From Eledone cirrhosa (Eukaryota), in contig OZ024741.1 of assembly GCA_964016885.1 (NCBI GenBank), positions 321,470,001-321,534,000 on the forward strand: 64,000 nt of DNA. Direction: 5' to 3'. Of this stretch, positions 2,309-50,380 are shown piece by piece (position 1 is the first letter of the stretch; every line of letters starts with the position of its first letter). A model generated the notes under the pieces. The model saw nothing but the letters and a program-made list of their open reading frames with translations. It had not been told where the DNA came from and did not search any database. A program made the position numbers and the translations under genes.

Positions 2309-2360
<52 letters not shown>

Positions 2361-2565
2361 AGTATGTACACGTACATACATATATGTATACAGACGTACA
2401 GTAGTATGTATATATATATATACATACATGCACACATATATATATGTACGTATGGATTCACCGAATATTTATTATAATGCTCGATGTGTTTGTAAACAAA
2501 CATCCCATATTAAGCCGTAGTGTCTAGCAACCATCGTTGCTCGTTTGCTCAACACTGACAAAGGA

Positions 2566-2606
2566 ACGCTGAACTAGTTTCAAGCTTATTAGCTATCGTC
2601 AGCAAC
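2566..2606 (-). ncRNA. Type I hammerhead ribozyme (GUU site)
   Basis: Reverse complement: GTTG-CTGACGA-T-AGCT aata AGCT-T-GAAA-CTAG-TT-CAGC. Confidence 0.85.
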
Positions 2607-2983
2607 CTATACCTTCCTGCCAGATTGTTGAACGTATATACTTACCTTATGCATATTAACGGCTGAGTAGCCCAATTTGCATATCGAGTGGGTTAATCGG
2701 CCGGGTGCACCGAAAACGATAAACGGAAAAAATGAAACGAAATTTCATTTCCCACTCTTAGTACGGCTGTTACTTAAATATAAGTATGTACACGTACATA
2801 CATATATGTATACAGACGTACAGTAGTATGTATATATATATATATACATACATGCACACATATATATATGTACGTATGGATTCACCGAACATTTATTATA
2901 ATGCTCGATATGCAAATTGGGCTACTCAGCCGTTAATATGCATAAGGTAAGTATATACGTTCAACAATCTGGCAGGAAGGTAT

Positions 2984-3026
2984 ACGTTGCTGACGATAGC
3001 TAATAAGCTTGAAACTAGTACAGCGT
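2984..3026 (+). ncRNA. Type I hammerhead ribozyme, minimal form with palindromic stem III (GUA site)
   Basis: ACGTTG-CTGACGA-T-AGCT aata AGCT-T-GAAA-CTAG-TA-CAGCGT; stems I and II pair and the core is intact. Confidence 0.9.
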
Positions 3027-3405
3027 TCCTTTGTCAGTGTTGAGCAAACGAGCAACAATGGTTGCTAGACACTACGGCTTAATACGGGATGTTTGTTTAC
3101 AAACACATCGAGCATTATAATAAATGTTCGGTGAATCCATACGTACATATATATATATGTGTGCATGTATGTATATATATATACATACTACTGTACGTCT
3201 GTATACATATATGTATGTACGTGTACATACTTATATTTAAGTAACAGCCGTACTAAGAGTGGGAAATGAAATTTCGTTTCATTTTTTCCGTTTATCGTTT
3301 TCGGTGCACCCGGCCGATTAACCCACTCGATATGCAAATTGGGCTACTCAGCCGTTAATATGCATAAGGTAAGTATATACGTTCAACAATCTGGCAGGAA
3401 GGTAT

Positions 3406-3448
3406 ACGTTGTTGACGATAGCTAATAAGCTTGAAACTAGTACAGCGT
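3406..3448 (+). ncRNA. Hammerhead copy with C3>U change (TTGACGA), probably impaired
   Basis: Same as 2984-3026 except the first core base. Confidence 0.75.
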
Positions 3449-3707
3449 TCCTTTGTCAGTGTTGAGCAAACGAGCAACGATGGTTGCTAGACACTACGGC
3501 TTAATACGGGATGTTTGTTTACAAACACATCGAGCATTATAATAAATGTTCGGTGAATCCATACGTACATATATATGTGTGCATGTATGTATATATATAT
3601 ACATACTACTGTACGTCTGTGTACATATATGTATGTACGTGTACATACTTATATTTAAGTAACAGCCGTACTAAGAGTGGGAAATGAAATTTCGTTTCAT
3701 TTTTTCC

Positions 3708-3766
<59 letters not shown>

Positions 3767-4307: not shown

Positions 4308-4545
4308 CATCATCATCATCATCATCACCGTTTTACGTCCATTCTTCCACGCTAGCATGGGTTAGACGGGTTGTCCGGTTGTGGGCAATGCCAGGTCGGG
4401 TGACCTTATCTTGCTCATACGGGAACTCATTTTGCCGCTATTTCTACAGCTGGATGCCCTTCCTAACACCAACATCATTTACCTTGAGTGCTGGGTGTGT
4501 TTTTACCGAGGCACCTACACGACCACTTTACAGTGTGGGCTGAGT
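4308..4545 (-). mobile_element. RTE-associated 3' end/SINE with (ATG)n tail
   Basis: (CAT)n plus CAGCTGGATGCCCTTCCTAACACCAAC core, shared with the copies at 47140, 52920, 53668 and 58435. Confidence 0.7.
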
Positions 4546-4549
4546 GCAG

Positions 4550-7300: not shown

Positions 7301-7405
7301 GGTAATTCCGAAGGTAATTCCGAAGAAAAAGCAAAGGAAAAAAGAGTGCTCTATGTATAGAACAGAGCTATTTAATTAGAAAGTGAACAGCACAATATAT
7401 AACTA

Positions 7406-7479
7406 CTCCATTACCAAAGGTTTCAGGACACTAGACAATATTAATATACGTCTAGGTCTAGATCGTTCATCAGACAGAG
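7406..7479 (-). ncRNA. Type I hammerhead ribozyme
   Basis: Inverted copy of 7503-7570. Confidence 0.75.
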
Positions 7480-7502
7480 ATGTTATCAACATGTTATAAC
7501 AT

Positions 7503-7570
7503 CTCTGTCTGATGAACGATCTAGACGTGTATTAATATTGTCTAGGGTCCTGAAACCTTTGGTAATGGAG
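7503..7570 (+). ncRNA. Type I hammerhead ribozyme (GUA site)
   Basis: CTCTGT-CTGATGA-[gatctagac...gtctagggtc]-GAAA-CC ttt GG-TA-ATGGAG. Confidence 0.8.
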
Positions 7571-7664
7571 TAGTTATATATTGTAAAGGACTGTTTGAGT
7601 TTATAACTCTGAATATAATATAATATATATTTATATATATATATATATATATAATTAGAAAGAA

Positions 7665-7847: not shown

Positions 7848-10408
7848 ACGATCACTTAACTACATACAAAAATTCTGCCTAAGAAAACTCATACAACACC
7901 TACACCGCACGCTACAACACATACGGACTATTTCCAGCCTTGTACCACAAGTCGCTGAAACCCCAGAACCTCTGCCCAGAGTTATCTCCGCCGCTATAGA
8001 CAGGTCATACCACCATCGCCGGGACTACGAGAAAATACGCCTAACGCAAAAATTTCTCAAACTCAGCACGGCTAACTGTCTTAACAACATCCCAACTCTA
8101 AACACCAACAGAGGCGAACAAGATGGTACCAACACCGGACCTAGCGGCGCCCCGACCAACAACACACCTGACGCAAAACACCTCGTCACAGACTTGACAG
8201 GATCCCTCTCCCGAGATGAACTAGACCTCCTCAGACTGGGTCCCAAGTTCATATTGAAACAGAGACTGACGACAAGTTATGGCTCGACATAGAAACGAAT
8301 TTCTGTCGGGCCGCCTACCAACTAAAATGGATATCGACTCTCGGCAACAACACCACGGAATCTAACAAACCCAGATTCCCGATATACCAACTGGATCGCC
8401 CACTCTGTCCACCGCCTGCCAACCGCAAGCTTGAAGAAAAACTCTCGAGGCTAAAACATTCCGTATTTAACATCTTACGGAAACAGAAGAAGACAGCCCC
8501 AAACCTCTCCAGGACACAACAACTCGCCCTGAAGAACCTGCGGAATAGGGAACTTATATACTTACCATCCGACAAAGGTAAAGAGTTTTGTGTCATCTCT
8601 CAAGCCACATACAACAACCTAGCCTTTGAACACCTAAGCGACAACAAACTATATACAGAGATCCCGGACATGACTGCAGCCCAGATCGAAAAACAGGCCA
8701 ACTCAATCTGGTTCGACATCTGAAGGAGAAGATAACTCCCAAATAAAATTAAGCTCAACTACACCACTAGAAATAGCAGACTGCCCACTTTCTATCACCT
8801 CATCAAGACCCACAAGAATAGTACTAGGACACAAATAAGACTCATCGTCTCTAGCATAGAAGGACCCCTATACAAAATCTCCTGGCTCCTCTCCCAGGTC
8901 CTCAAGCCTCTACTCTCCACCTTTCCCGGGCATGTCAGTAGCTCCGACGAAGTCATACGTAGACTACACGAACTCCAGCCAGAACAACTTAAACTAAATA
9001 GATATGCCTTTAGCCTCGACGTTGTCTCCCTTTACACTACAGTCCCCGCTCATCCAGCTGTCGATTTATTGACGGACTGCGTGGTCGCAGAGGACATCCA
9101 CTGCTACGGCCTCCATCCGACGGACATACACCAGCTTTTGTCCTTCACAGTGGACAATACGTACTTCACCTTCCACCACCACACATACAGACAGACAACA
9201 GGATTACCCATAAGATCCAGCCTATCGGGCCTACTGGCCATCACCTATATGAACCAGCTAGAATGCCGAGCCCTCAACACCTGCCATTCCCATACCTTCT
9301 TCACCCGATATGTAAATGACATACTCATCCTTACATCATCCCGTGAGGAGGCGGATAAAATATACACGACATTCTCCAGCATGGACGCCAGTATAAAGTT
9401 CAGCATGGAACACCCCGATGACCGCGGATCCCTATCTCTACTGGACTTCCAACTTAGGGTAACAGAGGAAGGCAACATCCACACCTGCTTCTATAGAAAA
9501 GCCGCCAGCGGGGACCTCTTCGTACATTTCAGATCGGCCCTCCCAGCCGGCGCTAAGTTCGGATACATAAGGAACGAACTAACAGGTATCCGGAACAAAA
9601 GCACCGACGCTAGAGACCGAGACACACACACCACACATTTCCTGGAAGTACTCAACTGAACGGATACCCGACGTCCACCACGAACCGTGCCAGAAAGAAC
9701 AGAGGACACCACACCCGAGGCACTAACACCTGCTTCCTGAAGCTCCCACACTTCAGTGACGAAACTACAACAGCCATCCGCAGGGCTATCAGACGAGAGG
9801 GACTAGATATCCAACTAGCCCACTCAGAACCTTCTCTACGCGGACAGCTAACCAAAAGACACTCCACCAGACATGACAGCCGCTGCAGGCTAGCCAACTG
9901 TCCCATCAACGACACAGACCTATGCCACCAGGCTTACGTCGTATACAGATTAGAGTGCGACAAATGCAGCAATTTCTACGTAGGTAGCACCACCAGACCA
10001 CTTCACATAAGAATAAAAGAACACCTCAATACTAACGCTTCCTCATTTAAGAAAGACCTAGTGAAATGCAAAAACACCGACAAAAACATAACAGTTAGGA
10101 TAGAAATTAAGGAAAGAAACCTCGGCAATCTTAGAATTAAGGAAGCACTGATTATAGACAAAACACAACCACCAATCAATAATAGACTAGAACTCACCAC
10201 CCAATTTATAACTTGATAGTGCACCTAGCCCCACACTTACACCCCCCACCCCTCTCACACACACGCACACACTCACACGCACACACACACACACGCGCGC
10301 GCTTAGACCTCCACTTATTCTCTCACACACACACATAGACACACAAAGACCAGTTTTAACATGATAGAGCTTAGCCCCCACATTTACGTATAGACATATC
10401 TTCTCACA

Positions 10409-10441
<33 letters not shown>

Positions 10442-10782
10442 GCATACTTACGCCTTCACGTATTCTCCCACACACTTAAACATACATGTACAAACCCCCT
10501 TTTAAAGGGAAACTACTCTTTATCCACCTAACCTTCACTCTCTGACATTAGAGATAGAATGATATCTCTATACCATTTCCTGTCAGCATGACTTGGCAAG
10601 CTAATTAGAACACTGGATTAACCACTTTACTTCCCTCCGAAGAAGAGATATTATCTCGAAAATTAAGGATATTTAAATAAATTTAAGGTAAAAGACTAAT
10701 TATCAACAATATATTTTGCATTTGCATTTATATTCTATATCCATACCTGCATTGTCTTGGCCTTACAACTACAAATACAAAC

Positions 10783-10787
<5 letters not shown>
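7848..10787 (+). mobile_element. Decayed Penelope-like retroelement (RT + GIY-YIG endonuclease)
   Basis: Motifs LLRLGPKF, PSDKGK, YHLIKTHK, SLDVVSLYT, YRQTTGLP..S.LSGLLA, RYVND and VVYRLECDKCSNFYVGSTTRPLHIRIKEH. Stops and frameshifts present. Degenerate HHR at 10634-10668 in the 3' tail; flanked by (TA)n. Confidence 0.92.
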
Positions 10788-12456: not shown

Positions 12457-14966
12457 TCTATATATATAAAGGGAAGATGGACATTGTTTGGTGCTCCCAA
12501 CTTGCGTGCTACACCGTTCATCCAATTTTCATGAAACCTCACACATATATAAAACTCAACGCGTAGAGTGGAATAGGCTACTTGAAATTTTCGAAAAATC
12601 GATAATCGGGCCCTATGACAGAATGTTTTTCGATTCCAATGAAATTTTATGTGAATTCGAACACAAGAACTCTTAGTTTACATCTGGCGCAATAAAAATA
12701 AATTTCATATGCCCATATAAGGACGTGCGTTATTGATTGGACAGCCACCTGCATGTCTTCCCAGCTGTCTCATTAAACGACCGACCATTAAAGAGTTTAT
12801 CTTTTCATATTCCACCTTATTCAAGTGGAAATACAGTATTATCCCTATCTGAAAAGGGAACCAAATTTAATGGTGTCTTTTGTGATGCTAAAAGCTGTGA
12901 GTAAATTTTAAAACAGTCTTAAATAATCATGCTTTTTGAAAAAAAAAATTACTAAATAATACGTTGACCAAGTTGTATTGTACACATACAAAGTTGTAAA
13001 AAATGTTACTTCCGTACCAATGTTTTCCTTTTTTAAACAAAAGATTCTAAAAAATTACTTAATTTATAATAGTCTTTTGCACAGGAAGTGAGTAACTTTT
13101 CGGGTGTTTAAACGTAAGTTCACCAGGGTTTGTGTCTTCATTATTAGCCCACCTCTAATGGCATTTTTTGTTCTGCTTACGACTAAATGTTATGAGCGTA
13201 TTTGCAATTAATTGCGCACACGTGCACACCTGCATGCAGATAGACACTGACAGCCAATAAAAAATCGATAACTTGCTTATTAAGATATCGGTCAAAAAGA
13301 GAGATTGAATGTACTTTAGAACATTTTTTGAATATATTGTTCTTTTTGGCATGATATGTCAGAAATATAACTACTATACACTTTGGTTATTTTTTGTAAC
13401 TAAAAAACGGTTCCTTTTGGGTAGATACTTAACGAGAAAAATCCTAGGGTTTTGGACAAGTTTGTTTCAGGCGCTGTATAGACGCCTATTTTGTTACACC
13501 TCGTATTCTTTTCCAATAGATATTTTCCGCTCTATAAGGCTCACCAGGATATAATGCGTATCATTTAAAATCAGGTCCGCACAACGGCGTGTAAGGCCAA
13601 CCAGGAAAATGCTATCTTCTTTACTTTTAGTCTAGATCTATTACTTCTGTTAGAGCCGTGATTGATTACCATTGTATTATTTATACATAAGGCTCACCGG
13701 AGTATAAAGCGCAGAGCTGTTTTTTTATTAAATTTAATTATTTTAAGTGCAATTTATAGACCGGAAAATTCGGTAAGTTATTGTAATCATATTTCCAAAC
13801 CTTCCCATTCACCAGTAACCATGCTAACGAATCTGGTGTCATCTCTCTCTGTATTTAATCACCTCTCTCTAACCTAACAGCTTCGTTACACGTCGTTATG
13901 CCCACACGGAAACGTTCAAGACTTACCTCCAAAAAAGGTACAGCTACTGCTTTGAGACAACGAATTAGGCGTTCTCAGGTATGAGTTCATTCACAATTGA
14001 TTAATCCTTTATGCAATATTCTCCCTTAATGTTAGCAAGTACTGCGTTTATCCTAACTCTCACCACTTTTAAGCAACTACAACCTTCTAATCGTAGTTAT
14101 ATTAAATTTATTGTCTTACCTTGATTCCCTTTTGTTCATGTTAGACTTTTCTCATTTACTATTGACACTGCCATTGGCTTAGCTAACCAGTAGAATTAAT
14201 TAATTTTCTCTAGGAAACACCTGCTGAGCGGGAATCTCGACTCGCTGATAGACGTCTTTCCCGGCTGGTTGAGTCACCAACATCACGTACGACAAGGCTT
14301 GCTGATGTTCGCCTTCGTCGCCAACAAGCGCTGACGGAGGAATCACCAACATCCCGTCAGACGAGGCTTGAGGCTGTGGCAAAGGGCAATAACCCTAGAT
14401 ACAATTTTGATCAACTTTTTTTCACCTATAGTAAATTTACCGGGACAGATTTTTAGCTACTCAAATCTACTTCAGAGATCACGCATTGATGTAAAAAATC
14501 AATAAAACTGAAGCGGGGCTCGCTCAACTTTGCGCAAAAAAACAAGGCAAAGTTACACATGGGAAAACTTTTTACAGGAACGTCCTATATTCTTGAAAAC
14601 TGTCACAAAAGAGTCGCCATTATGCCGCGGTTAAGATAAAGGCCCTTTTAATTCTTCTTCTGCACATGTGAGCGCAAAAATTGTAAAAAAAAAAAAACCC
14701 TGAAAGTAATCGACATTTTCACCCTGCTTTAAATTAACTGAACATTCAATATCAAGCGATTTTGACTTCCGTCAGTCGTGCAGAGAACAATTTCAACGAT
14801 ACACTGTGTAACTACAATTAATAAATTACACACCTGTGTCTACTAACCTATTTTTTTTCATTGAAGTTCGAAGTTTTGAACCTGTGATGCGCGGGAAGTA
14901 ACTTTCACACATTCTAACAGACCAATGGTCGACTTACACCCGGGCAACGCCGGGTACTTCTGCTAG
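12457..14966 (+). mobile_element. Non-autonomous Helitron
   Basis: 5' A|TCTATATATATAAAG; 3' hairpin CCCGGGCAACGCCGGG then CTAG|T. The pairing of these two ends is inferred. Confidence 0.75.
13519..13773. mobile_element. Tc2/pogo-like MITE nested in the Helitron
   Basis: Imperfect TIRs ATTTTCCGCTCTATAA / TTATAGACCGGAAAAT and internal ATAAGGCTCACC repeats. Confidence 0.55.
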
Positions 14967-14975
14967 TATATATAT

Positions 14976-15368
14976 AAAATTAGAATTGGTGCTCTGAAAT
15001 AGCGATGTATATATGAATGTATATATAGTGTATTTTGCAATACACTCTATGCTTAATTAAAAGCATTTTGAAGACCATACGCTATTGTTTTAAAGTAGCG
15101 ACATTGTCGCTTACTTAAATTTTCGGCAGACAGGGGGAGATAAGTTGACAGCTCTGTTTCGTACTTTTTGGTACTTATCAAAACTCACTACTCTCCCTGT
15201 CTGCCGAAAATTATGTGTGTTGGATTCTTATAGAATTCCAGTAACAATCAGGAACTGATTTTACAGAGCGGTCGCCGGCCCAGCAGAAATTGAAAATTAA
15301 AATTGGTGCTCTGAAATAGCGATATATATATGAATGTATATATAGTGTATTTTGCAATACACTGTATG
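14976..15368 (-). mobile_element. Retrozyme-like insert, 317-nt monomer with about 75-bp terminal direct repeat
   Basis: AATTGGTGCTCTGAAATAGCGAT at 14984 and 15301; one internal HHR. Confidence 0.8.
15142..15186 (-). ncRNA. Type I hammerhead, U3-A8 core variant (GUC site)
   Basis: Reverse complement: GAGTT-TTGATAA-GTAC caaaaa GTAC-GAAA-CAG ag CTG-TC-AACTT, sitting on top of a further stem of about 20 bp. Confidence 0.85.
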
Positions 15369-15625
15369 GAGACGTTCCCTGGCAATGAACGGAAAAAAGC
15401 GAAGATAATGCGTCATTATGTGGAGCGATGAGAACAATTTCACGCAAAGACAAAACCACGTTTATGGTATAAATGAAGCCGTAGACTAATATTCTATTAA
15501 GGAAACCGAATGATTCTCCGCTTCAGAGTTAAGAATAATGTAAATAAACTACAGAGGTTATTGAAATCAACAATAATTAAATATAATTAAATATAAAATA
15601 TAATTAAATATAAATATAAATATAA

Positions 15626-16322
15626 TCTATATATATATATATAAAACTGAAGATGTCTGTCTGTATGTGTGTGTGAGAGAGTTTGAATCCCTAAAACTCG
15701 AGAAGCACCCAACCGACTGTTTTCAAACTTTACACATGTAATACTTATGTTTCAGTGAGTGTTCTGAGCAAAATAAATTTCAAATTTTCCCTAGGCGATC
15801 TCTCTCTATAATTCTTAGTCTTTCTCTTTTTAGATAGATACATACATATAACGTCGCGCCCTTAATTTTCTTGATCCACTAGGCCCGCATTAGGTGAAAA
15901 ACTGCGTTTTTCAGGTTTTTAGGGGTTTTTTGACCGATTTCCTTGAAATTATAACTATGTATTAGTCAGTCTCTTCTTCATACCGTGAGCAAAGAAAACT
16001 TTTTTATGGCCTAGCGCACGCATTAGCTGAAAAACCTCATTTTTTTTCAGGTTTTTAGTGCTTTTTCAGGCGTTACGCCTAGCCGATTTTCCAGAAATTT
16101 CAAGGCATATTATGCACATTAAAAAAATCATTTTCTTGATCCCCTAGGGCCCGCATTTTTCCTGCTTCATCGAGGAAAATCTTAAAGATTATCCAGCCAT
16201 CAGAGTATTCGGTTTATTTTCTTTACATATTGTCCAGGCATGCAGTTTTTCCACGATTAGGTCTGTTGGCAACCCGCGTTCCAAAATACCTTATGCCGTG
16301 CAACGCTGGGTACCACTGCTAG
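15626..16322 (+). mobile_element. Non-autonomous Helitron
   Basis: 5' TCTATATA...AAACTGAAGATGTCTGTCTG; 3' CCGTGCAACGCTGG...CTAG|T. Confidence 0.75.
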
Positions 16323-16450
16323 TTAAATATAAAAAGCGTGTAACACCGCTCCAAATAATGATGCATTATCTTCGCTTTTTTTCCGTTCATTGCCAGGGAA
16401 CGTCTCCACGAACCAAAGTATCGTCTTCCTGTTTTCCTTCGGTTGCAACG

Positions 16451-17130
16451 TGTTTTATTGATGGCGCACTATCTCTCTCTGGTGTGTTACCTTTTCAACA
16501 TATTGTATTTTAAAGAGCTCAGGATTCCTTCTCCTTTGAGCCCATTATTGACAGGGAATAACGAGAGTCTATGGTTCCGTTAATCTATCGTGATATTTCG
16601 CTCCTTATAACAGTCATTCCTCTCTCTCTGTTTGGTTGAGCACACTCCTCTGAGTGGTTTTGAGCTGCCCTTTCTAGCAGCTCGTCCCTCAGACACCACT
16701 GGTTCCCTGCCCTAAACACGCTGTGACTTCTCTCTCCCACGTGTAACTGGACAGTCGCTTTAAATTCTCTTAGTGTTGTCTGAAATGTATAGCCTTACAC
16801 ACGCTGATGAACCATGGGCTATTTATTTCTGTCAACAAATTATTGGCGAAACAGATCTCTTTGGATTTGTACGTGTGTTTTATATAGTTATAGAGGTTTG
16901 TATATACACTTTAATTTATATTTTTAATTACTGTGTCTAGCCTGCCTTTCATAGGTTATAGATTCCATACACTGGTGGTTTTTCCCTGTTTTATTGATGA
17001 CGCACTATCTCTCTCTAGTGTGTTACCTTTTCAACATATTGTATTTTAAAGATCTCAGGATTCCTTCTCCTTTGAGCACGTTATTAACAGGGAATAGCGA
17101 GAGTCTATGGCTCCGTTAATCTATCGTGAT
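16451..17130 (+). mobile_element. Retrozyme-like insert, 536-nt monomer with about 143-bp terminal direct repeat
   Basis: 16451-16594 is repeated at 16987-17130; central HHR; ends in (TA)n. Confidence 0.8.
16797..16878 (+). ncRNA. Type I hammerhead with full stem III (GUA site)
   Basis: ACACACG-CTGATGA-[cca...tgg]-GAAA-CAGATC tctttg GATTTG-TA-CGTGTGT; perfect 7-bp stem I. Confidence 0.9.
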
Positions 17131-17215
<85 letters not shown>

Positions 17216-17219
<4 letters not shown>

Positions 17220-17562
17220 TGATATTAAATAAATGGAAACTATATTTATAAAACCATATTTATTCTATTATATATATTTCAACGGTACCAAAATTTAGGT
17301 ACGCTATCATCAGATAAAATACAAAATGTTTTATAAATATTTGACATGACCAAAGATAATATACCTTAACGGTTCAAGTTATCACTTTCCAGGGATAACT
17401 TGAACCGTTAAGGTATATCATCCTTGGTCATTTCAAATATTTATAAAACATTTTGTATTTTATCTTATGATAGCGTACCAACATTTTTGGTACCGTTGAA
17501 ATTTATATAATAGAATAAATATGGTTTTATAAATATAGTTTCCATTTATTTAATATAAATTG
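17216..17562. repeat. Fold-back palindrome (about 165-bp arms) containing an HHR
   Basis: Inverted arms around an apex near 17388; the right-arm core is mutated (CTTATGA). Confidence 0.9.
17264..17318 (-). ncRNA. Type I hammerhead (AUA site)
   Basis: Reverse complement: TTTAT-CTGATGA-[gtacc...ggtac]-GAAA-TATATA-TA-ATAGA. Confidence 0.75.
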
Positions 17563-17647
17563 AATACTTACTCCAAAAACTGTCGAGTGCTTTGAATCAG
17601 TTGTAAACATCTATATTTGTTCGATTTCCAACAAATTAAATATCTCT

Positions 17648-17680
<33 letters not shown>

Positions 17681-17681
<1 letters not shown>

Positions 17682-18100
17682 GAATAGCTTTCACCGTATT
17701 TTTGACTAAAGGAAATTAGCCTGATAATGGGGTTTAGAACCCTCAGATAAATGGAAAAAGGTGAGTATTGACGTACATGGGAGTCGAACCCACATCTTTG
17801 GTTATCGCGACCACTGTGCTACCATTACACCAACACATCACCCATCTCTCTCCATTCAAATTAGAAGCTACATTCTTAGCGAGTTTAAATGGCAAGTAAG
17901 TATGTTTTGAAACAGTGAGCAGGTTTGAAATTAGAAAATAGAATAGCTTTCACCGTATTTTTGACTAAAGGAATTTTAGCCTGATAATGGGGGTTCTAAA
18001 GCCCATTATCAGGCTAAAATTCCTTTAGTCAAAAATACGGTGAAAGCTATTCTATTTTCTAATTTCAAACCTGCTCACTGTTTCAAAACATACTTACTTG
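17681..18100. mobile_element. 259-nt-period insert with internal tRNA-like segment (-, about 17772-17833) and a terminal 100-bp fold-back
   Basis: AGAATAGCTTTCACC at 17681 and 17940; A box TGGTGTAATGG and B box GGTTCGACTCC on -; hairpin 17893-18100; related copy at about 35755-35875. Confidence 0.7.
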
Positions 18101-18939
18101 ATATATATATATATATATATACGTACATGTATATATGTATGCGTGTGCATATATATATATATAATGTTATACTTTGGGAGGGTCATGTTGCCAATAAGAA
18201 ACACACGCACCAGTTGCTTTCACTCCAATTTATTATAAATTAAATTATAAATTTTAAAAAATTTATAAATTTCCGGTTGGTTGGTTCCACAACCAGATGG
18301 TTGTTCATATATTGTCAAAGTTCTTTCGTCACACATTCTGTGTCCTCTTCAGTGACTGGGGATTCTTTTCTTTGTTTTTATGCCTCTCCTTTGTTCTGTC
18401 CTACATCATCTTGTTTATATATATACATATATATATATGCACACACATACATATATACATGTATGTATATATATTTATTATTTTATTATTATTTTATTAT
18501 TATTTTTTTATCTTTATTATTTCCACTTTTATCCTCCTTTATATTTTACCTTATTCTTACTTTTATACCTTATTATATGCCTTATTATACACTATTAATT
18601 ATAGATTATTATTATTACTCTTTTTCCATTTCTAATTACCTCACGTACTTTCTCCTCCGCTATATATATATATATATATATATTGTACGCCCTTTGTGTT
18701 TGTGTAGCCTCTGCGCACCCTCTGCACCATACTATCGACGCCACCCCATCTATGGTTCAGCTAACCACCCGACTCCCGGGAATGAATATGACCGCAGCTA
18801 GTAAACAAGGACCCACACCCCACCCTCCCGCACCAAAATTAGACTTATCGTCCCCTACTTTTGCTCTTTACTCTCTTTACTCTTTGTTCTTGAATGTTTG
18901 GTTGGTAGAGTCCATAACACCAATCAAACCCCTTTTATA

Positions 18940-18984
18940 GCTCTGACGAATCCTACGGTTACGTAAGGAAGAAACATTGTAAGC
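18940..18984 (+). ncRNA. Minimal type I hammerhead (GUA site)
   Basis: GCT-CTGACGA-[tcctacg...cgtaagga]-GAAA-C att G-TA-AGC, followed by AATAAA. Confidence 0.8.
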
Positions 18985-19262
18985 CAATAAAAATATTTTG
19001 ATGTTGTAGACGCTCTTGTGTTCTTTTTCATATATATATATACATATATATATATATACATATATATATACATATATATACATACATATATATATACAAA
19101 CATGTATATATGTATGTGTGTGCATATATATATATGCATATATATATATATATGTATATATAAATATGTATATATATATATATGTATGTATATACTTATG
19201 TATGTATTTATATATGTATGTATATTATATGTATATATATATATATGTATGTATATTATATG

Positions 19263-19342
<80 letters not shown>

Positions 19343-20499
19343 AAGTGTGAAGAATAACATGGTCAACAGTACAAGAAGGGTTTTATTTACAGTATTAACA
19401 ATTGCTTCATTGGTTAAGTTGTCTAAAAAATTTTAATCACTTGAAGTTGTGTCACTCAATTTTAAATAAAATGCATGCTTAACCATATCATCAGAAAAAA
19501 CTGTTTGAAATTATACACGGCGTTTGTAATATACTAGGGAAATTCAAATTACAACATCAGTAATAAAGAAAGAAAAAGAAAAAAGAAAAAGACAGAGAAA
19601 AAGAAAGAAGAAAAAAGATAAAGAAAAAGAAAAAGAAAAAAAGGAAAGAATAATAAATAAATAATAATAAATAAGTTATAATGAAGATGATAAAAAATAA
19701 ATTTTAAAATGTATGTCTGTGAAGGAAAGTAAATATATGATTGTTGAAAATAGTTGGGGTGTTGGTGGTTAAAACATAAAGATGTGATGGTATAAACATG
19801 AAAATATTAAATATATACATATATGTATTGGTAAAATTAATCTACTATATAAATTGGAAGTGGTCGGACGTTGTATATTTAAGTAAGTAGGTGTAGTCGG
19901 ATAAACGTCTAAACGTCTTGGTGGAATGCAGCGAAAATTTACACAGTTATGCAGAATGACCCGAGGAGAGTCGACTTTTAGGGTACAAGCTTCCATGGTT
20001 ACGGAGAAAATCGATGAAACAGGAATTTCCCATTCAAATTGAACTAAGAGTAATCTGTGAACGCAGAAGTAAATATTTCGATAAACGTTCCAACCGAACG
20101 AAAACAGGAAGACGATATTTTGGTTCGTGAAGACGTTCCCTGGCAATGAACGAAAAAAAAAGCGAGGATAATACGTCGTTATTTGGAGCGAGAAGAACAA
20201 TTTCATGCAAAGGCAAAACCAAGTTTATGGTATAAATGGAGTCGTTAGACTAATATTCTATTTAACATAACAGAATGATTTCCAGCCCCGGAGTTTAAGA
20301 ATGATGTAAATAAAATTGAAAACGAAAATGACAGGTTATTAAAATAGTAAAAGTAAATAGTGAAGATTTAGGCCAGTACATACGTATGCCCCGACGAACA
20401 TGCACATATGCACATACATACGCACACACAAATACATACCCCCCCCCCACACACACACACACACAAACACACACACAAACACACACACACGAGCGCGCG

Positions 20500-20915
20500 C
20501 GTGTATAAACCTTATGCATTTCTACAGTATTTTCACCAAACTTAAGACATAGGTTACTTATGTACTCCGGATGGTCATGGGCACTTTCATTTTTCCAGAT
20601 ATTGATTATAGGGCCTCGCGGCAGATAACCCCTTTAACCACTTCCTTGGAGTCGACTGAAGAACTGCAGTGCAATGCAAAGAAACGTCATAACTTCTGGA
20701 GTTCGCAACCGATTTTCACAAAACTTGACACATGGGCTACGTTTGTCCTACAGATGAATGTGAACTCTCAGAATTGGCACATATTGAGCAGGGGGCCCCT
20801 GGGGGCAGAAACCGTCTTTTGGAAAAAGCCGATGATTTTGTAAAAGTATAGTTTTCGAAGTAGCACTGAAGTATTGACATAAATGGTATACACAACTGCT
20901 GGGTACTTCTGCTAG
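20500..20915 (+). mobile_element. Helitron-type fragment (3' end)
   Basis: Ends GGGTACTTCTGCTAG|T, like the element ending at 14966. Confidence 0.55.
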
Positions 20916-21067
20916 TAAATTAATAAATTGGAAGTTATGTTAGAAGTGAAGAGAATACGATAGAATATAATGTAAGAGGTTCACTATTATTACTCCAAGA
21001 TTAACTTGCATATATGCACACACATACATATATACATGTACGTATATATATATATATATATTGTATT

Positions 21068-21621
21068 CATGACTGAATACAATAAATGTAATCTGAGTTT
21101 TTCGAATAATAATAATAACATTCGATTCGTTTGCAATTATGCAAACAAGCCTCAATTTTATAGCCATGTCAGTAGAATGAACACTTCATTCTTGCTCTTG
21201 TGTTGGCATGTGAACAGAACTGCAGACACTAATGTTTCTGGGTATCACCCTTCATCAGTACAGCTCACTGTTCACCTGCCAAACTGTCAGAGCTAGTGAA
21301 AATATATGCTATTTTCAAAAATACACAGTGACTGATCAACCTGATTTGCATATTAGCAGACTGGCTGATCAGTCAGATCTGCATATTAGCAGATCCACTG
21401 ATCAGCTAGATTTGCATATCAGCAGACGAACGATAAATGGCCGGCTTTGCCAAATCCAATAACAAAGAAAACTTTTTTCGCTCTGCATGACTGAATACAA
21501 TAAATGTAATCTGAGTTTTTCGAATATTAATAATAACATGCGATTGGTTTGCAATTATGCAAACAAGCCTCAATTTTATAGCCATGTCAGTAGAATGAAC
21601 TCTTCATTCTTGCTCTTGTGT
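21068..21621 (-). mobile_element. Retrozyme-like insert, 418-nt monomer with about 135-bp terminal direct repeat
   Basis: CATGACTGAATACAAT at 21068 and 21486; one HHR; (TA)n on both sides. Confidence 0.85.
21220..21263 (-). ncRNA. Type I hammerhead (GUC site)
   Basis: Reverse complement: CTGTA-CTGATGA-A-GGGT gat ACCC-A-GAAA-CAT ta GTG-TC-TGCAG. Confidence 0.9.
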
Positions 21622-24778: not shown

Positions 24779-24957
24779 ATATGTTAAGGAATAGTAAGAA
24801 TCGTAATACCGTTTTAGTTCAAAAGATGTTCACTGTTGTATGGGAGGGGTGAATGAGCGTTGCAAGGAGAATGACGGATACTATTTTTTATCCTACAGTT
24901 TATCATCATCATCTGCTTAGGGTAGGGAATGCTTGTTGTTTATGGGATGTCATCTCT

Positions 24958-25409
24958 TTGCATATCGAGTGAGTTAATCGGCCGGGCGCACCGAAAACGA
25001 TAAACAGAAAAAATGAAACGAAGTTTCATTTCTCACTCTTAGTACGGCTGTTACTTAAATATAATTATGTATACGTACATACATATATGTATACAGACGT
25101 ACAGTAGTATGTATATATATACATACATGCACACATATATATATGTACGTATGGATTTACCGAACAAAGGGGCAACGATGGTTGCTAAACACTGTACGGC
25201 TTAATTGGAGATGTTTGTTTACAAACACACCGAGCATTATAATAAATGTTCGGTAAATCCATACGTACATATATATATATGTGCATGTATGTATATATAT
25301 ACATACTACTACACGTCTGTATACATATATGTATGTACGTATACATACTTATATTTAAGTAACAGCCGTACTAAGAGTGAGAAATGAAACTTCGTTTCAT
25401 TATTTCCGT
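24958..25409. mobile_element. Second, diverged inverted insertion of the 422-nt family (HHR segment missing)
   Basis: - arm 24958-25166 and + arm 25176-25409 match 2676-2890 and 3474-3708. Confidence 0.85.
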
Positions 25410-25572
25410 ATATATATATATATTAATATGTGTAGAAGTAAACACAGTAAACTCGTGTCTAAAATTACGAGGGTAGATTACACCACAAATGTTATATATC
25501 ATTCAACCTGAATCATATGGGATTTTACAAGATTTCTCATACATACCATATCAATAACCATTTCATCTCCCG

Positions 25573-25849: not shown

Positions 25850-27260
25850 ATCTCATGTACATCAGATGCTATTGTGACGGGTTATGCAAAATATTCTCTC
25901 CACTTCGCGAGGGTGCACCTCTCTGAAGAGAGAACCCCTGACGCGTTCCTGGTAGCAAGTGTGGAAGAGGAGATCTTATTACAAAGTCGACGAATGGCCT
26001 GGATCTCTGGCACCCAGTCAATGGCAATCGGCGGAGGGATAATCCCAGTTTTCAAAAAGGGAGACAAGAGAGATTGTTCCAATTATAAGGAAATCTCCTT
26101 TTAAGCCTCCCTGGTAAAAGATATAGAGAGATTGTCGAGTGCAAGCTAGTGTGGTTTTCGCCCCAAACACCGCACAACCGACCAAATATTCACACTACGG
26201 CAGGTCTTTGAAAAATCGTGGGAGTACTGCCACTAGATGTATTCTTGCTTCGTAGTTCCACGGGACCTGCTGTGGAATGTTCTACACGAGTAAGGGATCG
26301 ATGCCCAGCTTCTTGTTGCCCGGACGTCTATATACGAATGCCCTGTGTTTGGATAGATGGTGCTAAATCGAAACCATTCAATGTCAGTGTCTGACTCCGC
26401 CAAGGGTGCGTACTGTCACCTCACCTGTTCATAATCTTAATGAACTGGATTGTCATGTGCAGCCAGATTGAAAGTGATATCGCCACTGGCGGATGAAGGA
26501 TCAGTCGGCTGGAATTTGCAGATAACGGGGAATTACTTAACTCGTCAGAAGGTGATCTCCGACATCCATACAGAATGCTGCACGGCTAGAATGAAAATCA
26601 GTACTACAAAGATTGAGACACTCGTCCTCTCATGAAAGCCTACGCAGTGCACTCTCCAAAGCAGGTTGAGAAGTTGAAGTATCTCGGCGATGTGTTCACG
26701 ACTGATGGAATGTAAGAGGCTGAATTAAATGCACGAATAGCAGGAGTTTGTTCAATAATACGCCAGCTTCAGCATTCGGTAATCAGAAGGTGTAAAAGCC
26801 AAACTCGCAATCTTCAATTCAGTATTTGTGCCAACCTTTGCCTATGTTCATAAATTTTGGGTAATGCCAAAAGAATACGATCGCGAATTCAGGCGGCCCA
26901 AGTGGGGTTCCTCTGAAGGGTCTTTGGAGTAACGTTACTTGATAGAATGCATAGCTCTGAGAGCAGGGGGCCGCTCCAGGTAAAGCCGCTACTTCTCCAA
27001 ATTGAGAGATAACAGTTCCGACAATATGGACATGTGGTTAGAATGTCTCGGGAAAGACTCGCTGGACAGATTTTACGGGCGAAACCGGCAGGGAACCTAG
27101 AGGTAGACCCCCGAGCAAGATGGTTGGATAACATCGATGAGTTCAGCTAGTGTCACTTGGGGATCTAGCCGGATCATTTGGAAAGGGTTGCTTCTGACAG
27201 AACCCGCTGGAAGGAGTGTTTGAAGATTCTACCCCAACAACCCTCTTAAGAAAGAAGAAG
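25850..27260 (+). mobile_element. Decayed RTE-clade LINE (RT to 3' end)
   Basis: IPVFKKGDKRDCSNY..ISLLSLPGK, TTDQIFTLRQ, LRQGCVLSP, YGHVVRM, RGRPRARW; many stops. Confidence 0.85.
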
Positions 27261-29425: not shown

Positions 29426-29467
29426 TATATGTACATACATGCATATATATATATATATATATATATT

Positions 29468-32400
29468 AATAAAAGGAATTTCAACTTTGATTTACTCGTT
29501 TTATTTACAATCCTTTAAAATTTTAATGATATTATAATGAAATAGTATGGTAGAATATTAAATGTTAATTGAACAAGTACTTTCATGCTTTCGCAATCTT
29601 CAGGTTCATATTCTGTGGTGACAGTCAAGTTTGCAATGTTCAACTGTAATGAGATGGCTAAAATATGTGCCTTATATACAGTAAAAAGGGGCTAGAGAAT
29701 GCTAAGTTTTGCAAACTGTATTTCGACCAATCAGTGTGTGGTTTCACTAGAACACTAAAGCTGATTGGTTTAGGCGTCACGGTTGGTTGAGCATGTCTAA
29801 CGACTTCTATTTGACCCTATCCAAAGCATCAATTGTTTTGCTATTTTTAGAAATGATGTAAATAGCATTTTCTAGGGTTTTTATAAAAAATCTTCAGTAA
29901 TCATCAACATAAACATCACTTTTATTATTATTATTGTTGTTGTTGTTGTTGTTAGTGGTGGTAGTCGACATGGTCGTAGTCATAGTCATAGTAGAAGTAA
30001 TACCCCTAACCATTATTATTGTTCATTTAGCTTGGGTTGGAATTTAACAATAAAATTCTTTTCTTTAATTTTTCTCTTGGGCTGTGTAATTTGTAGGATG
30101 GAAATATATAAATATTTTCTGACCACATGTTGCTAGATGGCTTCTCTGACGGACATTTGGATCTCTGATTTGCTGTCGGTGCACCCGTGAACGTTCCGAT
30201 AGTTCATTTCCAGTTTGACCGACATATAGTTTTACACAATTCGGGCATTTAATGCAGTAAATTAGATTTATGCTTTTGCAGTTCATATTTGCATTTGGGA
30301 ATATTTTTCCAGTTTTTGTGTTCATATACACCGTTGTGTATGGATTGATATGTGCCACATCGACTATCATTGCATTTAGATACAGTGAATGATTGGTCTT
30401 TGTTGTTAAGGTCAAACTTTGCCTTTGTTAGTAATTGCTTCAAATTTTTCGGCTGTCTTACTAAGAATCAAAGCTCGGTCTGTGATTAAGCTTTTTAATT
30501 CATTAATTCATTACTTTGAGCAATGATCGGTAGGTTTGCTTTGGCAGTGTTTAAGATATTCTGGTGACATGGGTTTTGTGTCATTATAAATGGTATGACC
30601 AGTTCTTGGTTTCTTCTTTCTTGGGTTGTCCTAAGTTGTTGTATAGATATTTTTATAGCCCGCTGTATGCCATTTTTTATAAGTTAAGATGGGTATGTTT
30701 GTTTGAGCAAAAATTCTCTCAGTTCTGTTAGGCGTTTGTTCCTGGTATTCGTATCTTCTACAATGGTACAAATTCTTCTGGCTAGGCAGTATGGGATATT
30801 GCGTTTTGTATGAGGTGGATGGCACAACTTAAAATTCAGATATTGATGGGTGTCTGTGTGGTTATAGTATATATCCGTGGTAATGGTGGTGTCGTTTTTG
30901 ATTACCATTATATCTAGGAATGGTAATTTGGTACTACTCATCTCTTTTGTAAATTAGAGAGATGGGTGTAGGTTATTCAGGAGGATATTGAACTCATCCA
31001 GAGTATCTAGAGATTCTGTCCAGATGATGAAACAGTTGTCAAGGTATCTTTTCCAAGATTTTTCAATGTACTTTCTAAATTCAGTGCTATATTTTCCTCT
31101 ATTTCTTGGTAGAGTTGTTGTTCTAAGTATCCCATTACAGAGTTTGCGTAAACGGGAGCAAACTTCATTCCCATTTGGATGTAGTTCTTTCCATTGAAGA
31201 AGAATGTGTTGTTTTCCAGAATAAGTCTGACTGCGTCTAATATAAATGGCACTGTGAATCTGGTGGGAATCACTTCTCTATGTTTTTCCACCTAGTATTT
31301 AACCGCCTTTATTCCTAAATCATGTGTAATGTTGGTGTAAAGGCTTACTACATCAAAACTAAGTAGAAGTGAATTCGTTTCCGTGGTTTTGGGAAGATGG
31401 GATAGGAAGTCGATACCATCCCGGATGAAACTGGGTATGTGAATACATAGTGGTTTCAAAATAATGTCAACAAAATTGCTTAGACGGTGGGTAGGGCATG
31501 TTGGACCAGCTATAATAGGTCTAAGTTTTAAGTCTTTTGTGTGTAGTAATTTAATGTACTCACTGTTTTGTTCTTTTACTGCCAGTTGGATTTCTTTTGA
31601 CTTATGAATTTTCGGTAGGCCATACAGGTTGCTGGGTTTCGGCTCAAAATTGGTGAGGTAGTCTATTTCATTATCAGTAAGTGAGTTGTAGTATTTTGAA
31701 GCCAGGTTGTTGATCTTCATGATGTGGTCTATATTTGACGGTATTTCATGGTAGAATGTTGTGTCTTTCAGTTGTTCCTCACCCAAATCTTTGTAGTATT
31801 CAGTATCCATTATAACAATTGCACCTCCTTTATCTGCTTGTTTAATTATTATTGTTTTATCATTTTGTATATGTTTAAGTGCTGACATTTCCGATTTGTT
31901 AATGTTTGGCCTAACATTAGTATTATGTCTATGAGGAAATTTAGACAGGATATCAATGTATTGGTCGAGATAGATATATCTTCCTTTTGGCGGTAAGAAA
32001 ATTTAATTTATTCTTTACTAATGATTCATCACTCTCATTACTTTTATCAGCGAAGAATTCTACAAGTCGTAATTTACGACAGAATTCTTGGGTATCCTCC
32101 TTAAGTTCTTGGTGGTTGACTGTTGGAGTCGGTGTGAATTTCAGTCCTTTTGACAGAATTTGCATTTCATCATTGTCAAGATCTCTTTTGGATAAGTTAA
32201 TTATTTTAGGATCTACGTGTACAGTTGTTTTGGGTATGTTTCCTCCTGGAGTTTCTTTTTCCGGTTTTTGTTGTCCCGACGTAAAAAAATGGATTTTTCT
32301 CTGTTCAGGATTTATATTCCTGTTGGTGTTTGCTTGATGAACTTTTGGTCGTGATATTATACTTAGTTTCGTTATGTTTTTTTTTTTGTCCTATTTTTGG

Positions 32401-35185: not shown

Positions 35186-35937
35186 ATTTTTTTTTTTATT
35201 ATTATTATCAAGTTGTGAATGTAATTATGGCGAATACATTCATGTGTCATTTTCGTGCTTTATTATTTTATTTATTTTGTTCAAGATATTTTTACCTGGT
35301 TGAGCGTCCAAGTAGGGACTTGGTGTCGTACTGTATGTTTACAAATTTACTTCCCCTTGACTGCAAAATTGATTTGATTTTGCACATCCGAGATTTTATT
35401 CCAGGAACCAGAGCAACGGTGCCATTAATGACAGCAATAATATTGAATGTATTTGATTTATGGAGACTAGGTTTGATAATTTACCAGGGTTACTGAATAC
35501 AGGAAGAATCATCTCAATTTAAAAATTAATTGTCATAAATTAGTTATTTACATATGAGAAACCCTATAGTTTATGTTGAGAAATGATTAAAGGTGAAAAT
35601 ATTTAAATATATTTCTAGAATATGATTACATAAATATTCAGCATATATGGACAGATGACATACAGGGATAAATGTATGAGCGACTTAGACGAATAGATTT
35701 TTTAGAGGGACAAATGTAGGATTAGTACCCAGGGCCTTCTGATTGGAAAGTAATACTCATCTTTTTCCGTTTCTTAGAGGGTTCTAAACAACACTATCAG
35801 GCTAAAATTTCTTTAGTCAAAAATACGGCGAAAGCTATTTCTAATTTCAAACTCGTTCGCCGTTTTAAAACAAACTTGATTAATACAAATATGTATTTAT
35901 GTGTATAAATATACATTATAGTGTAATGAATGCATGA

Positions 35938-36280
35938 GTGAATGGATTTCCACTGAAGCAGGTGGAGAAGTTCAAGTATCTCAGGGTCGTGTTCACAAGT
36001 GATGGAAAGCAGGTGGCTGAATTAATTGCAAGAATTGCAGGAGCTGGTGCAGTAATGCGCCAGCTTCAACATTCGGTAATCAGAAGGGAGGTAGACGTAA
36101 AAATCAAAACTTGCTATCTTCAATTCGGTATTAGTGCCACCTCTTACCTATGATCATGACCGAAAGAATACGATTGCGAATACAAGCAGCCGAAACGGGG
36201 TTCCGACGAAAGGTCTTTGGAGTAACGTTACTCCATAGAGTGTGTAGTTTGGAGATCCGTCATTCCAGGTAGAGCCACTA
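35938..36280 (+). mobile_element. RTE LINE fragment, same family as 25850-27260
   Basis: LKQVEKFKYL..VFTSDGK; matches 26660-26990. Confidence 0.8.
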
Positions 36281-36960
36281 GTTTCCTATTAAATTCCATT
36301 TATGTTAACGTAGAAAAAAATTATCTGGTTTTCTTTTTATTTGTATTTAAAAAAAAGTAAAAACAAACGTGCGCGTCTGAACGCAGAAATAATGGTTTTG
36401 TTTTGTTTTTAGAAAATGGTAGAGGGGAGGGGGAAATCCGATTTGTAAAACCGCTGGAAATCATTGTTTTGCAGTCAACCGTATACTTCAGGACAAAAGT
36501 TGGGGCGGCGAGGGAAGGAGTGCGAATATTGAAATATATAGGAAGTGTGGCTTTGTCACCATTTTAATTCATCCAAAGCGATGTTCCATCTCACCAAACC
36601 AAATCTGGCTCAAAACCCGACCTCATATTTGTGGCGTACTAATGTTTTATCAATTTCAACCTCTAGTAATTTCGAAAACCACTATTTTTAGTATAAGACC
36701 ACTTCGATGTCCACTTTTTACCTTTCACCCTGAACAGGCTGCTATTTCTGACACGTTTACAGACCACTACTTTTTTTTATCTTTCGAAAGGGAGACTGGT
36801 ATAAATCCATAAATTTATAAAGAGAAACCAATAACAAGACTTCATAGAAACGGATAACATTTGAAAATTAATAATATTCCCTCCTAGAGGAAGGAATATT
36901 CATTCCAACATTGGTAGCATAACTAATATTCCGGAGAGAAAACTTTAGAAAAATATTGCA

Positions 36961-36976
36961 GGCCCTTAAAAGGGCT
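36961..36976 (-). terminator. Histone 3' stem-loop of H2B (first stem G>A)
   Basis: Reverse complement AGCCCTTTTAAGGGCC versus consensus GGYYCTTTTNAGRRCC. Confidence 0.85.
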
Positions 36977-37002
36977 GTTTTGAAAATTATAGTAGTAACT
37001 TT

Positions 37003-37364
<362 letters not shown>

Positions 37365-37616
37365 AACAGATAGCAGTTATTATCAATTGATACTGGAACA
37401 TATACATTCAGTTATATTTATAGTTGACAGGTAGGCTCACCAGCGCAGTTTCTAAACAATTTAGCGCTTTGCAATTTCATTGGTAGAAATTGATGGTTCA
37501 GTAAATCACGTGATCCCGCCAATTCAGCGGCTGCTGATAGCCTATTGTGGTGTATTTAAGTCAGACAGCATCTTCCATCAGTTATTGTTTACATCGAACT
37601 ACTCGCATTAATAACT
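37365..37616. promoter_or_regulatory. Bidirectional H2A/H2B promoter
   Basis: TATAAATA on - (37415-22), CCAAT on - (37479-83) and + (37519-23), TCACGTGA (37506-13), TATTTAA (37553-59). Confidence 0.75.
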
Positions 37617-37994: not shown

Positions 37995-38025
37995 ATAAAT
38001 AGAAATTGTTTATTTTATTACAAAC

Positions 38026-38041
38026 GGTCCTTTTCAGGACC
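38026..38041 (+). terminator. Histone 3' stem-loop of H2A
   Basis: AAAC-GGTCCTTTTCAGGACC, 31 nt after the stop codon. Confidence 0.95.
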
Positions 38042-39968: not shown

Positions 39969-39972
39969 GTGT

Positions 39973-40399: not shown

Positions 40400-40403
40400 C
40401 TAA

Positions 40404-47867: not shown

Positions 47868-50378
<2,511 letters not shown>

Positions 50379-50380
<2 letters not shown>

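Follow-up and report, generated by a model that had tools for sequence, protein, structure and literature searches.

What kind of RNA is copied when a short repeat enters a genome at more than one unit length, with a ribozyme cleavage site left unbroken inside the copy? The question is raised by a window of 64,000 nucleotides from Eledone cirrhosa (OZ024741.1; "the window" is this whole stretch), (TA)n-rich animal DNA that contains genes for histones H2A and H2B, the remains of two Penelope-like elements (PLEs) and a series of inserts made of one monomer plus a partial repeat, several of them carrying a type I hammerhead motif. For the partial tandems of PLEs, two published models compete, one with a circular template (PMC4209133, PMC7229834) and one in which uncut tandem RNA is primed internally (PMC11167929). 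The inserts described here are retroposed copies, and their template must have been longer than one unit, with the hammerhead junction intact. Their origin is very probably of the PLE type. The template that we favour, with a probability of about 0.55, is an uncut longer RNA copied by PLE proteins, although a circular template and an uncut longer strand cannot be told apart from the DNA alone.

Seven inserts of more than one unit

Self-BLAST of the window recovered all seven periods (317, 536, 259, 418, 422, 616 and 2798) given in a preliminary description of this DNA, and the families are named after them. Copies were compared within the window and, for the 536 family, in runs of reads and contigs. 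The inserts and related copies are listed below; for 317, 536, 418 and 422, lengths in units are counted in hammerhead sense.

14976-15368, minus strand: 317-family insert, 1.24 units; direct repeats 14976-15051/15293-15368 (76 bp, 96%, E 2e-28); 3' end at 14976 meets an (AT)5 run, 5' end adjoins a piece of a repeat called X
16451-17131, plus strand: 536-family insert, 1.27 units; direct repeats 16451-16595/16987-17131 (145 bp, 94.5%); 3' end into (TA)n at 17131, 5' end mid-monomer
17679-17995, probably minus strand: 259-family insert, about 1.22 units; direct repeats 17679-17735/17938-17995 (58 bp); 3' end into (TA)n, no hammerhead found
17988-18100, plus strand: inverted 5' arm of the 259 insert, ending 45 nt past the main 3' end (tail), into (AT)n
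35752-35882, plus strand: second 259-family fragment, ending approximately at the tail end, without the tRNA-like part
21068-21621, minus strand: 418-family insert, 1.33 units; direct repeats 21068-21203/21486-21621 (136 bp, 97%); past the 3' end, an 8-nt fold-back and then (AT)n
2353-3713: 422-family insert, an inverted arm (2353-2912) and a 1.92-unit tandem (2904-3713) with a 9-bp overlap at the inversion; direct repeats 2904-3295/3326-3713 (392 bp)
24957-25413: second 422-family insertion, main 3' end as in the first, other 5' end, inverted arm ending 43 nt past the main end
50377-51135: 616-period insert, 1.23 units; direct repeats 50377-50519/50993-51135; flanked by (TA)n runs, no hammerhead found
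54385-58211: 2798-period insert, 1.14 units (55036-58211) and an inverted arm (54385-55039); direct repeats 55036-55413/57834-58211
17212-17647: insert from a separate family with two inverted arms, the right one longer by about 80 nt; direct repeat absent
18685-19030, plus strand: insert flanked by (TA)n runs, one hammerhead fold (core 18943, predicted cut after 18981), no repeat

A partial direct repeat is present in 7/7 of the named inserts (58-392 bp, 94.5-99.3% identity). The described architecture of a monomer plus a partial repeat therefore holds throughout, with two additions: the 422 insert is a 1.92-mer with two hammerheads and an inverted arm, and the inverted arms of 259 and 2798 had gone unmentioned. 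The 317, 536, 259, 418, 422 and 616 monomers are mutually unrelated, as had been stated, and have only short low-complexity matches in common; the relation of the 2798 unit to the others was assessed by self-BLAST of the window alone. All ATG open reading frames (ORFs) in or across the 536 and 418 inserts are shorter than 90 aa, and none of at least 50 aa is present in 317 or 259. The short repeats have a low GC content (0.37-0.40). The minus strand of the 259 insert is suggested by its arrangement and by a tRNA-like segment within the unit (17768-17840; ARAGORN tRNA-Ser, Rfam 41 bits); the copy at 35752 begins about where this segment stops.

Two of the units have internal repeats. The 418 monomer holds a 33-bp unit repeated 2.9 times (21331-21427), with hairpins predicted, and each 33-bp unit contains ATTTGCAT-like octamers. 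Inside the 2798 unit, an older 512-bp dimer (56567-57581, 89% identity) was carried along.

Hammerhead motifs with unbroken predicted cut sites

With a type I hammerhead descriptor, 40 block-wise dinucleotide shuffles averaged 0.025 cores, whereas the window itself yielded 7: one each in 317, 536 and 418, two in 422 and two elsewhere. A looser descriptor gave 10 candidates against 0.05 per shuffled window (20 shuffles); the one at 16498 (minus) looks spurious. An initial strict scan had returned 1 motif only, being overly strict at the helix II base, and the matches of a separate relaxed scan without shuffle control (at 7.4k, 17.2k and the PLE ends) are weaker. The motifs of the three single-hammerhead inserts are the following.

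15140-15188, minus strand: 317 type I hammerhead fold, U3-A8 core variant, G10.1-C11.1, predicted cut after 15147, 171 nt from the 3' end
16797-16878, plus strand: 536 type I hammerhead fold, helices I and III of 7 pairs each, predicted cut after 16871, 260 nt from the 3' end
21217-21266, minus strand: 418 type I hammerhead fold, A.A mismatch at the helix II base, predicted cut after 21225, 157 nt from the 3' end

In these three inserts, the hammerhead lies in the middle, outside the terminal repeat, and the sequence is unbroken across the cut site, as the preliminary description had claimed. In 317, helix I continues into a long hairpin (15120-15210). The 422 insert carries tandem hammerheads with predicted cuts after 3020 and 3442 (the second with C3U), and a third one in the inverted arm. 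A mismatch at the helix II base is present in the 536 (A.C), 418 and 422 motifs. In the 536 family, the C at 16847 reads T in only about 5-10% of the depth, which suggests that the mismatch is the majority state.

In Rfam, no hammerhead reached the gathering score in the window; 317 alone had a sub-threshold HH9 match (23.4 bits vs 52), and 536 and 418 were without any hammerhead match. The many Rfam microRNA matches in the window are inverted-repeat or microsatellite noise. No motif of 259, 616 or 2798 passed the hammerhead scans (the standard looser and the relaxed one): a type III reading of a plus-strand CTGATAA in 259 failed by hand, with helix I pairing absent, and a CTGATGA motif in the 2798 repeat did not pass.

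Folded as single strands, the 317 and 418 regions were better than 200/200 shuffles and the 536 region better than 194/200, and the 422 and 18.9k motifs were unremarkable. Minimum-energy structures retain helices I and II or I and III, never the full hammerhead core. As circles, the monomers gave minimum free energy z scores of -9.0 (317), -7.8 (536), -7.5 (418) and -6.4 (422), with only -1.0 for 259 and -2.1 and -3.2 for 616 (25 shuffles). Self-cleavage of these hammerheads is predicted. Additional short hammerhead-bearing inserts lie at 7392-7584, 46850-47099 and 52335-52520, two of them with inverted arms; the right arm at 47099 terminates within the helix II region of the hammerhead.

Recurrent 3' ends and variable 5' ends

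With the 271 nt of 422, distances from the predicted cut to the 3' end range from 157 to 271 nt. The 5' ends stop short of the previous cut site by 95 nt in 317, 115 nt in 536 and 21 nt in 418, and that of 422 lies 117 nt past it. In the first three inserts, the overlap falls short of the cut-to-end distance (76<171, 145<260, 136<157), which leaves the hammerhead outside the repeat. In 422, the overlap is longer (388>271), so that the hammerhead falls inside the repeat and two motifs were read through.

The permutation of the inserts had been described as arbitrary. This is so for the 5' ends, which vary in 422 (window copies) and in 536 (read and contig runs). On the other hand, a recurrent 3' terminus was found in 3/3 comparable families (422, 259, 536), at one or two sites and mostly into (AT)n. 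Fixed termini shared by all copies had been named as evidence against a circular footprint; one side of the inserts has them in recurrent form and the other does not. Both 422 insertions end at one base (3713 = 25413) into (AT)n and have different start points. The outer end of the 259 insert, 18100, corresponds to about 35880 of the second copy. The 17131 end of the 536 insert is the family's recurrent 3' end, monomer position 16596.

Inverted arms are present in 422 (2/2 insertions), 259, 2798 and the insert at 17.2k, and absent from the window copies of 317, 536, 418 and 616. By self-BLAST, the arms share 4-9 bases at the inversion point. Tails measure 43 nt (422) and 45 nt (259), near the published 30-40 bp. 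The 3' flanks are (TA)n or AT-rich, with the exception of one 422 inverted arm that ends in non-AT sequence; (TA)n flanks make target duplications unreadable.

Read-through and terminal redundancy are separable, since hammerhead inserts without direct repeat (17212-17647 and 18685-19030) occur beside more-than-unit inserts without detected hammerhead (259, 616, 2798). In 17212-17647, each arm has a hammerhead-like fold, with cuts at 17269 (minus) and 17509 (plus) predicted by the relaxed scan without shuffle control. Taken as a circle footprint, the read-through thus stands in part: more than one unit with an intact junction was indeed copied, but the pattern is not diagnostic.

Pieces of repeat X lie at 15367-15548, 16344-16451 and 20085-20314, and X adjoins the 5' ends of the 317 and 536 inserts in inverted orientation. 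The outer ends of the X pieces are 43 nt apart on X. They may represent a PLE-type insert with two arms, or else the joining of cDNAs from different families. In addition, three related ends (14953-14967, 16309-16323, 20902-20917) consist of a short hairpin and CTAGT, and resemble Helitron 3' ends. The 317 insert lies in an (AT) run directly after the first of them.

The 536 family in sequencing runs

Four runs were mapped to one 536 monomer (16451-16986). X1 and X2 are from the same sample, X5 is from another organism and X8 is a restriction-site-associated DNA (RAD) run. Matches numbered 2531 among 17.1 million contigs in X1, 2470 among 16.3 million contigs in X2, 5 among 8.3 million contigs in X5 and 2946 among 12.5 million RAD reads in X8. 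The results concern the best 20 of 469 loose ends, 15 of 31 joints, 40 of 194 variants and 12 of 27 insertions or deletions.

Four of the best 20 of 469 loose ends run into (AT)n, three at 16596 (11 contigs in X1, 18 in X2, 1 in X5) and one at 16508 (133 reads in X8). The remaining 16 are diverged family sequence or a likely ligation chimera. The records ending at 16596 likely derive from other loci, because they match through a T at 16596, a position at which the window copy has G at its end. Nine of the best 15 of 31 joints lead from the monomer end back to its start. As many records read through in this manner, the 5' end of the window copy is a mid-monomer truncation point. Opposite-strand joints (inversions) occur in at least 4 X1 contigs, at scattered positions.

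Depth does not drop across 16596, and 2 of the 22 listed pieces span it by at least 31 bases on each side; hence, 536 copies of more than one unit are likely common. There is no depth step at the predicted cut site either (X1, 75k and 50k just upstream vs 57k and 64k at or after it), which argues against cut linear monomers as the main template and does not separate a circle from uncut RNA. No 5' loose end at 16872 was found among the best 20 of 469, and no insertion or deletion at 16871-16872 among the best 12 of 27. From the cut to the 3' end, depth is about 3 times higher than upstream, as summed contig depth and not copy number.

The two repeats of the window 536 copy have 8 differences in 145 bases. 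At 10 or more positions, more than 90% of X1 depth has a letter other than that of the window copy (best 40 of 194 variants). The window copy thus diverges from the family majority by at least 1.9%, and two repeats decaying independently would be expected to differ at about 5 or more positions. At 16585, both repeats carry C, a minority letter, with T in about 95% of X1 and X2 depth. The difference count and the shared C together fit insertion of units that did not yet differ from each other, whether a circle or a homogeneous multimer was the source.

Read-end pile-ups of X8 at 16582/16584, 16763 and 16916 lie on AATT sites and are likely restriction ends (the first needs the family T at 16585). 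An X8 opposite-strand joint, 16483/16588 (one start), and a loose end before 16582 were dropped for the same likely cause. An exact 25-base motif of the family had 0 matches in metagenome contigs, and a run search with the 536 insert gave no RNA run among the matches listed.

PLE remnants and relation to known elements

Two broken PLEs lie in the window.

7849-10785, plus strand: broken autonomous PLE with DKG motif, reverse transcriptase (RT; PF00078), C-terminal GIY-YIG (PF01541) and a degenerate hammerhead-like motif at 10637, ending in (TA)n
29467-32390, minus strand: second broken PLE with DKG motif, GIY-YIG (PF01541) and a hammerhead-like motif, predicted cut about 110 nt before the (TA)n end

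Pfam places PF00078 and PF01541 at 8736-10213 and PF01541 at 30068-30427. Both remnants end in (TA)n about 100-115 nt past the hammerhead-like motif (relaxed scan without shuffle control), a layout of the ends that resembles the one of the short inserts and speaks for their PLE-type origin. By tblastn with pieces of the PLE ORFs, neither the short families nor 2798 contain PLE coding remnants.

The inserts are new families of non-autonomous PLE or non-long-terminal-repeat (non-LTR) retrozyme, and as elements they are unremarkable within known kinds. PLEs are reported to form partial tandems and inverted 5' copies, to have tails of 30-40 bp and to insert at microsatellites (PMC8557442). These features extend to clades lacking a canonical hammerhead; in Naiad and most Chlamys PLEs, where it is missing, partial tandems are formed nonetheless (PMC8557442). 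A full downstream copy with a variably truncated upstream one was described in 2008, its origin left open (PMC2377424), and short 5'-truncated non-autonomous PLE insertions have been reported (bioRxiv 2022.05.23.493040). In Octopus vulgaris, recently active PLE families are listed in a text whose relevant part does not mention ribozymes (PMC13282606). Unlike PLEs with pseudo-LTRs, the units found here are 259-616 bp long and apparently not ORF-bearing (one is 2.8 kb), and the window gave no autonomous partner whose ends match theirs. The cut-to-end distance of 157-271 nt also differs from that of the anole PLE (about 85-92 nt, computed from PMC11167929).

The families resemble animal non-LTR retrozymes (PMC7229834; bioRxiv 10.64898/2026.07.22.740005) in their short low-GC repeats, type I hammerheads, strong predicted self-pairing and PLEs in the same genome. 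They differ in that 259, 616 and 2798 are without detected hammerhead, and in that cleavage and circles are here a matter of sequence prediction. The preprint sets two units as its mark of an active retrozyme; the window copies of 317, 536 and 418 fall below it, with one hammerhead each, and only 422 has two in tandem. As for the motifs, 317 shares the U3-A8 core covariation of Schistosoma Cercyon PLEs, and 422 has the one-pair helix III and palindromic loop of dimer-type hammerheads (PMC4209133). Compared with the PLE hammerheads of the same study, helix III has 3-7 pairs in 317, 418 and 536, and the usual G10.1-C11.1 is missing in 536, 418 and 422.

Plant LTR retrozymes are likewise non-autonomous, hammerhead-bearing and terminally redundant (PMC7761336). 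However, they have type III hammerheads in both LTRs, a primer binding site, a polypurine tract and 4-bp target duplications (PMC7761336), whereas the hammerheads here are type I, single in three inserts and outside the repeat in 3/4, and the 5' ends vary. For animal retrozymes, the link to PLE pseudo-LTRs has been made in the 2026 preprint (bioRxiv 10.64898/2026.07.22.740005) from co-occurrence and homology. The present anatomy complements it by tying such repeats to PLE insertion marks, namely a recurrent 3' end, an inverted arm and a tail.

Proposed mechanism and the form of the template

The arrangement and ends of the inserts are observed; from them and from published work we infer transcription, cleavage, the enzyme and the form of the template. 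A locus with more than one unit would be transcribed. Judging by insert anatomy, mobilisation would occur in trans by a PLE protein: a PLE RT-endonuclease would nick a (TA)n target, and reverse transcription would begin internally, downstream of the hammerhead, at either of two fixed sites, in line with PMC11167929; the cut-to-end distances of 157-271 nt are observed in the four hammerhead inserts. Copying would then pass the cleavage site, intact in the DNA, and halt at a variable point. A copy of more than one unit would have a partial repeat (pseudo-LTR) and a shorter copy none. Finally, priming on both target strands would account for the head-to-head arms, with their 4-9 shared bases and short tail offset.

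In this scheme, a cut-and-ligated circle is not required, since 259 and 616, without detectable hammerhead, form the same more-than-unit inserts. These two and 2798 favour an uncut template as the most likely one, and the helix II base mismatch in 536, 418 and 422 is counted on the same side. Direct experimental support is better for the uncut multimer, which the preliminary description had given as a bracketed option beside the circle. In vitro, PLE reverse transcription starts internally and both strands are cleaved and extended, favouring internal priming on uncut RNA (2024; PMC11167929). Hammerhead mutants leave insertion unaffected, and the main substrate is unprocessed RNA (PMC11167929). 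In the 2026 preprint (bioRxiv 10.64898/2026.07.22.740005), cleavage was seen in 1/9 dimers; the 8/9 Xenopus retrozyme dimers left uncleaved are, in our view, a point for an uncut template.

Several points weigh against an uncut RNA copied by PLE proteins. As circles, the monomers of 317, 536, 418 and 422 are predicted to be far more stable than their shuffles (z -6.4 to -9.0), the long helices of 536 could make monomer cleavage possible, and related animal repeats accumulate as circles (PMC7229834); all three fit a circular template equally well. The end offsets of about 80 nt (17.2k), 88 nt (536 family) and 141 nt (2798) exceed the published 30-40 bp tail. The short families are without homology to the 3' regions of the window's two PLE remnants. 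In addition, 317 and 418 are represented by one copy each in the window, so that the recurrent 3' end rests on 422, 259 and 536. For the last of these, further (AT)n ends may exist beyond the best 20 of 469 loose ends, X1 and X2 are one sample and the 133 X8 reads may derive from few loci.

A circle is the strongest alternative, though a less probable one. Here, the PLE enzymes and the fixed start site would be the same, and the template would be a hammerhead-cut, ligated monomer circle, with RT running past one turn and stopping at random. The idea is not new: circular templates were proposed for more-than-unit PLE reverse transcription in 2014 (PMC4209133), and for animal retrozymes in 2020, in a study that showed circles in coral, mussel and axolotl and suggested that PLEs make tandem cDNAs (PMC7229834; the model is restated in PMC7761336). 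It is in line with the strong predicted circular self-pairing and with a 422 insert that crosses two cut sites. It also agrees with the 536 data, that is, no depth step at the cut, no 5' loose end at 16872 among the best 20 of 469, the shared minority C at 16585 and 8/145 differences that fit decay after insertion. However, each of these points fits an uncut homogeneous multimer equally well, contig depth is not a copy number, and families without detected hammerhead, as well as a 2.8-kb unit, show the same pattern. Moreover, PLE insertion in vitro is independent of cleavage (PMC11167929). The window copies of 317, 536 and 418 carry a single hammerhead and cannot release a monomer; any circles would therefore stem from other loci. 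Less probably than not, Penelope RT worked from a fixed site on ligated hammerhead circles and past one turn, which would make these high-copy families the genomic footprint of a circular RNA intermediate. If true, circular RNA would be a true transposition intermediate, and the regeneration of pseudo-LTRs would be explained.

Short families with thousands of matching contigs (2531 for 536 in one run), with and without hammerhead in one genome, are suited to decide between the two templates by counting insert ends. In the literature searched, mostly open-access main texts with supplements aside, we found no paper with insert-end statistics separating circle from multimer.

It is improbable that the template was a linear cut monomer, on which RT would start internally, reach the 5' end at the cut site and jump to a second monomer at its 3' end, thereby restoring the junction. 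Some non-LTR RTs are known to jump between templates, and read-through would then need no ligation; a hint that cDNAs can join unrelated sequence comes from 317 and 536, whose 5' ends adjoin pieces of repeat X. However, the cut-site junctions are clean in all four hammerhead families and, in the 536 runs, show neither an insertion or deletion at 16871-16872 (best 12 of 27) nor a depth step. A DNA-level origin by local duplication, decayed satellite arrays, true LTR-type termini or assembly errors is very unlikely, for although the window is microsatellite-rich and satellite-like growth of such repeats has been discussed (bioRxiv 10.64898/2026.07.22.740005), the repeats differ by 0.7-5.5% and so are not collapsed duplicates, each partial repeat stops at its insert's own ends, the 5' ends vary unlike those of LTRs, and (AT)n 3' ends, inverted arms and tails recur in independent copies and a second organism.

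Other features of the window

Divergent histone H2B (minus; the frame seems to shift near its end) and H2A (plus) genes lie at 36987-37994, and the histone 3' stem-loop is weakly matched at 36937-36981 and 38021-38062. At 52922-54209, a 1.3-kb inverted repeat (95%) contains an internal 112-bp doublet, and its family is also found at 4308-4546, 47073-47655 and 58380-58659. An open stretch of 208 aa (40798-41424) has no Pfam match, lies near an inverted repeat at 39967-40408 and is possibly a transposase remnant. Decayed RT sequence resembling long interspersed nuclear elements was recognised by eye at 25880-27200 and 35956-36283, as two related pieces with 74% identity. Finally, an ORF with STPR repeats (PF21107) at 58783-59343 is possibly part of a Helitron-like element.

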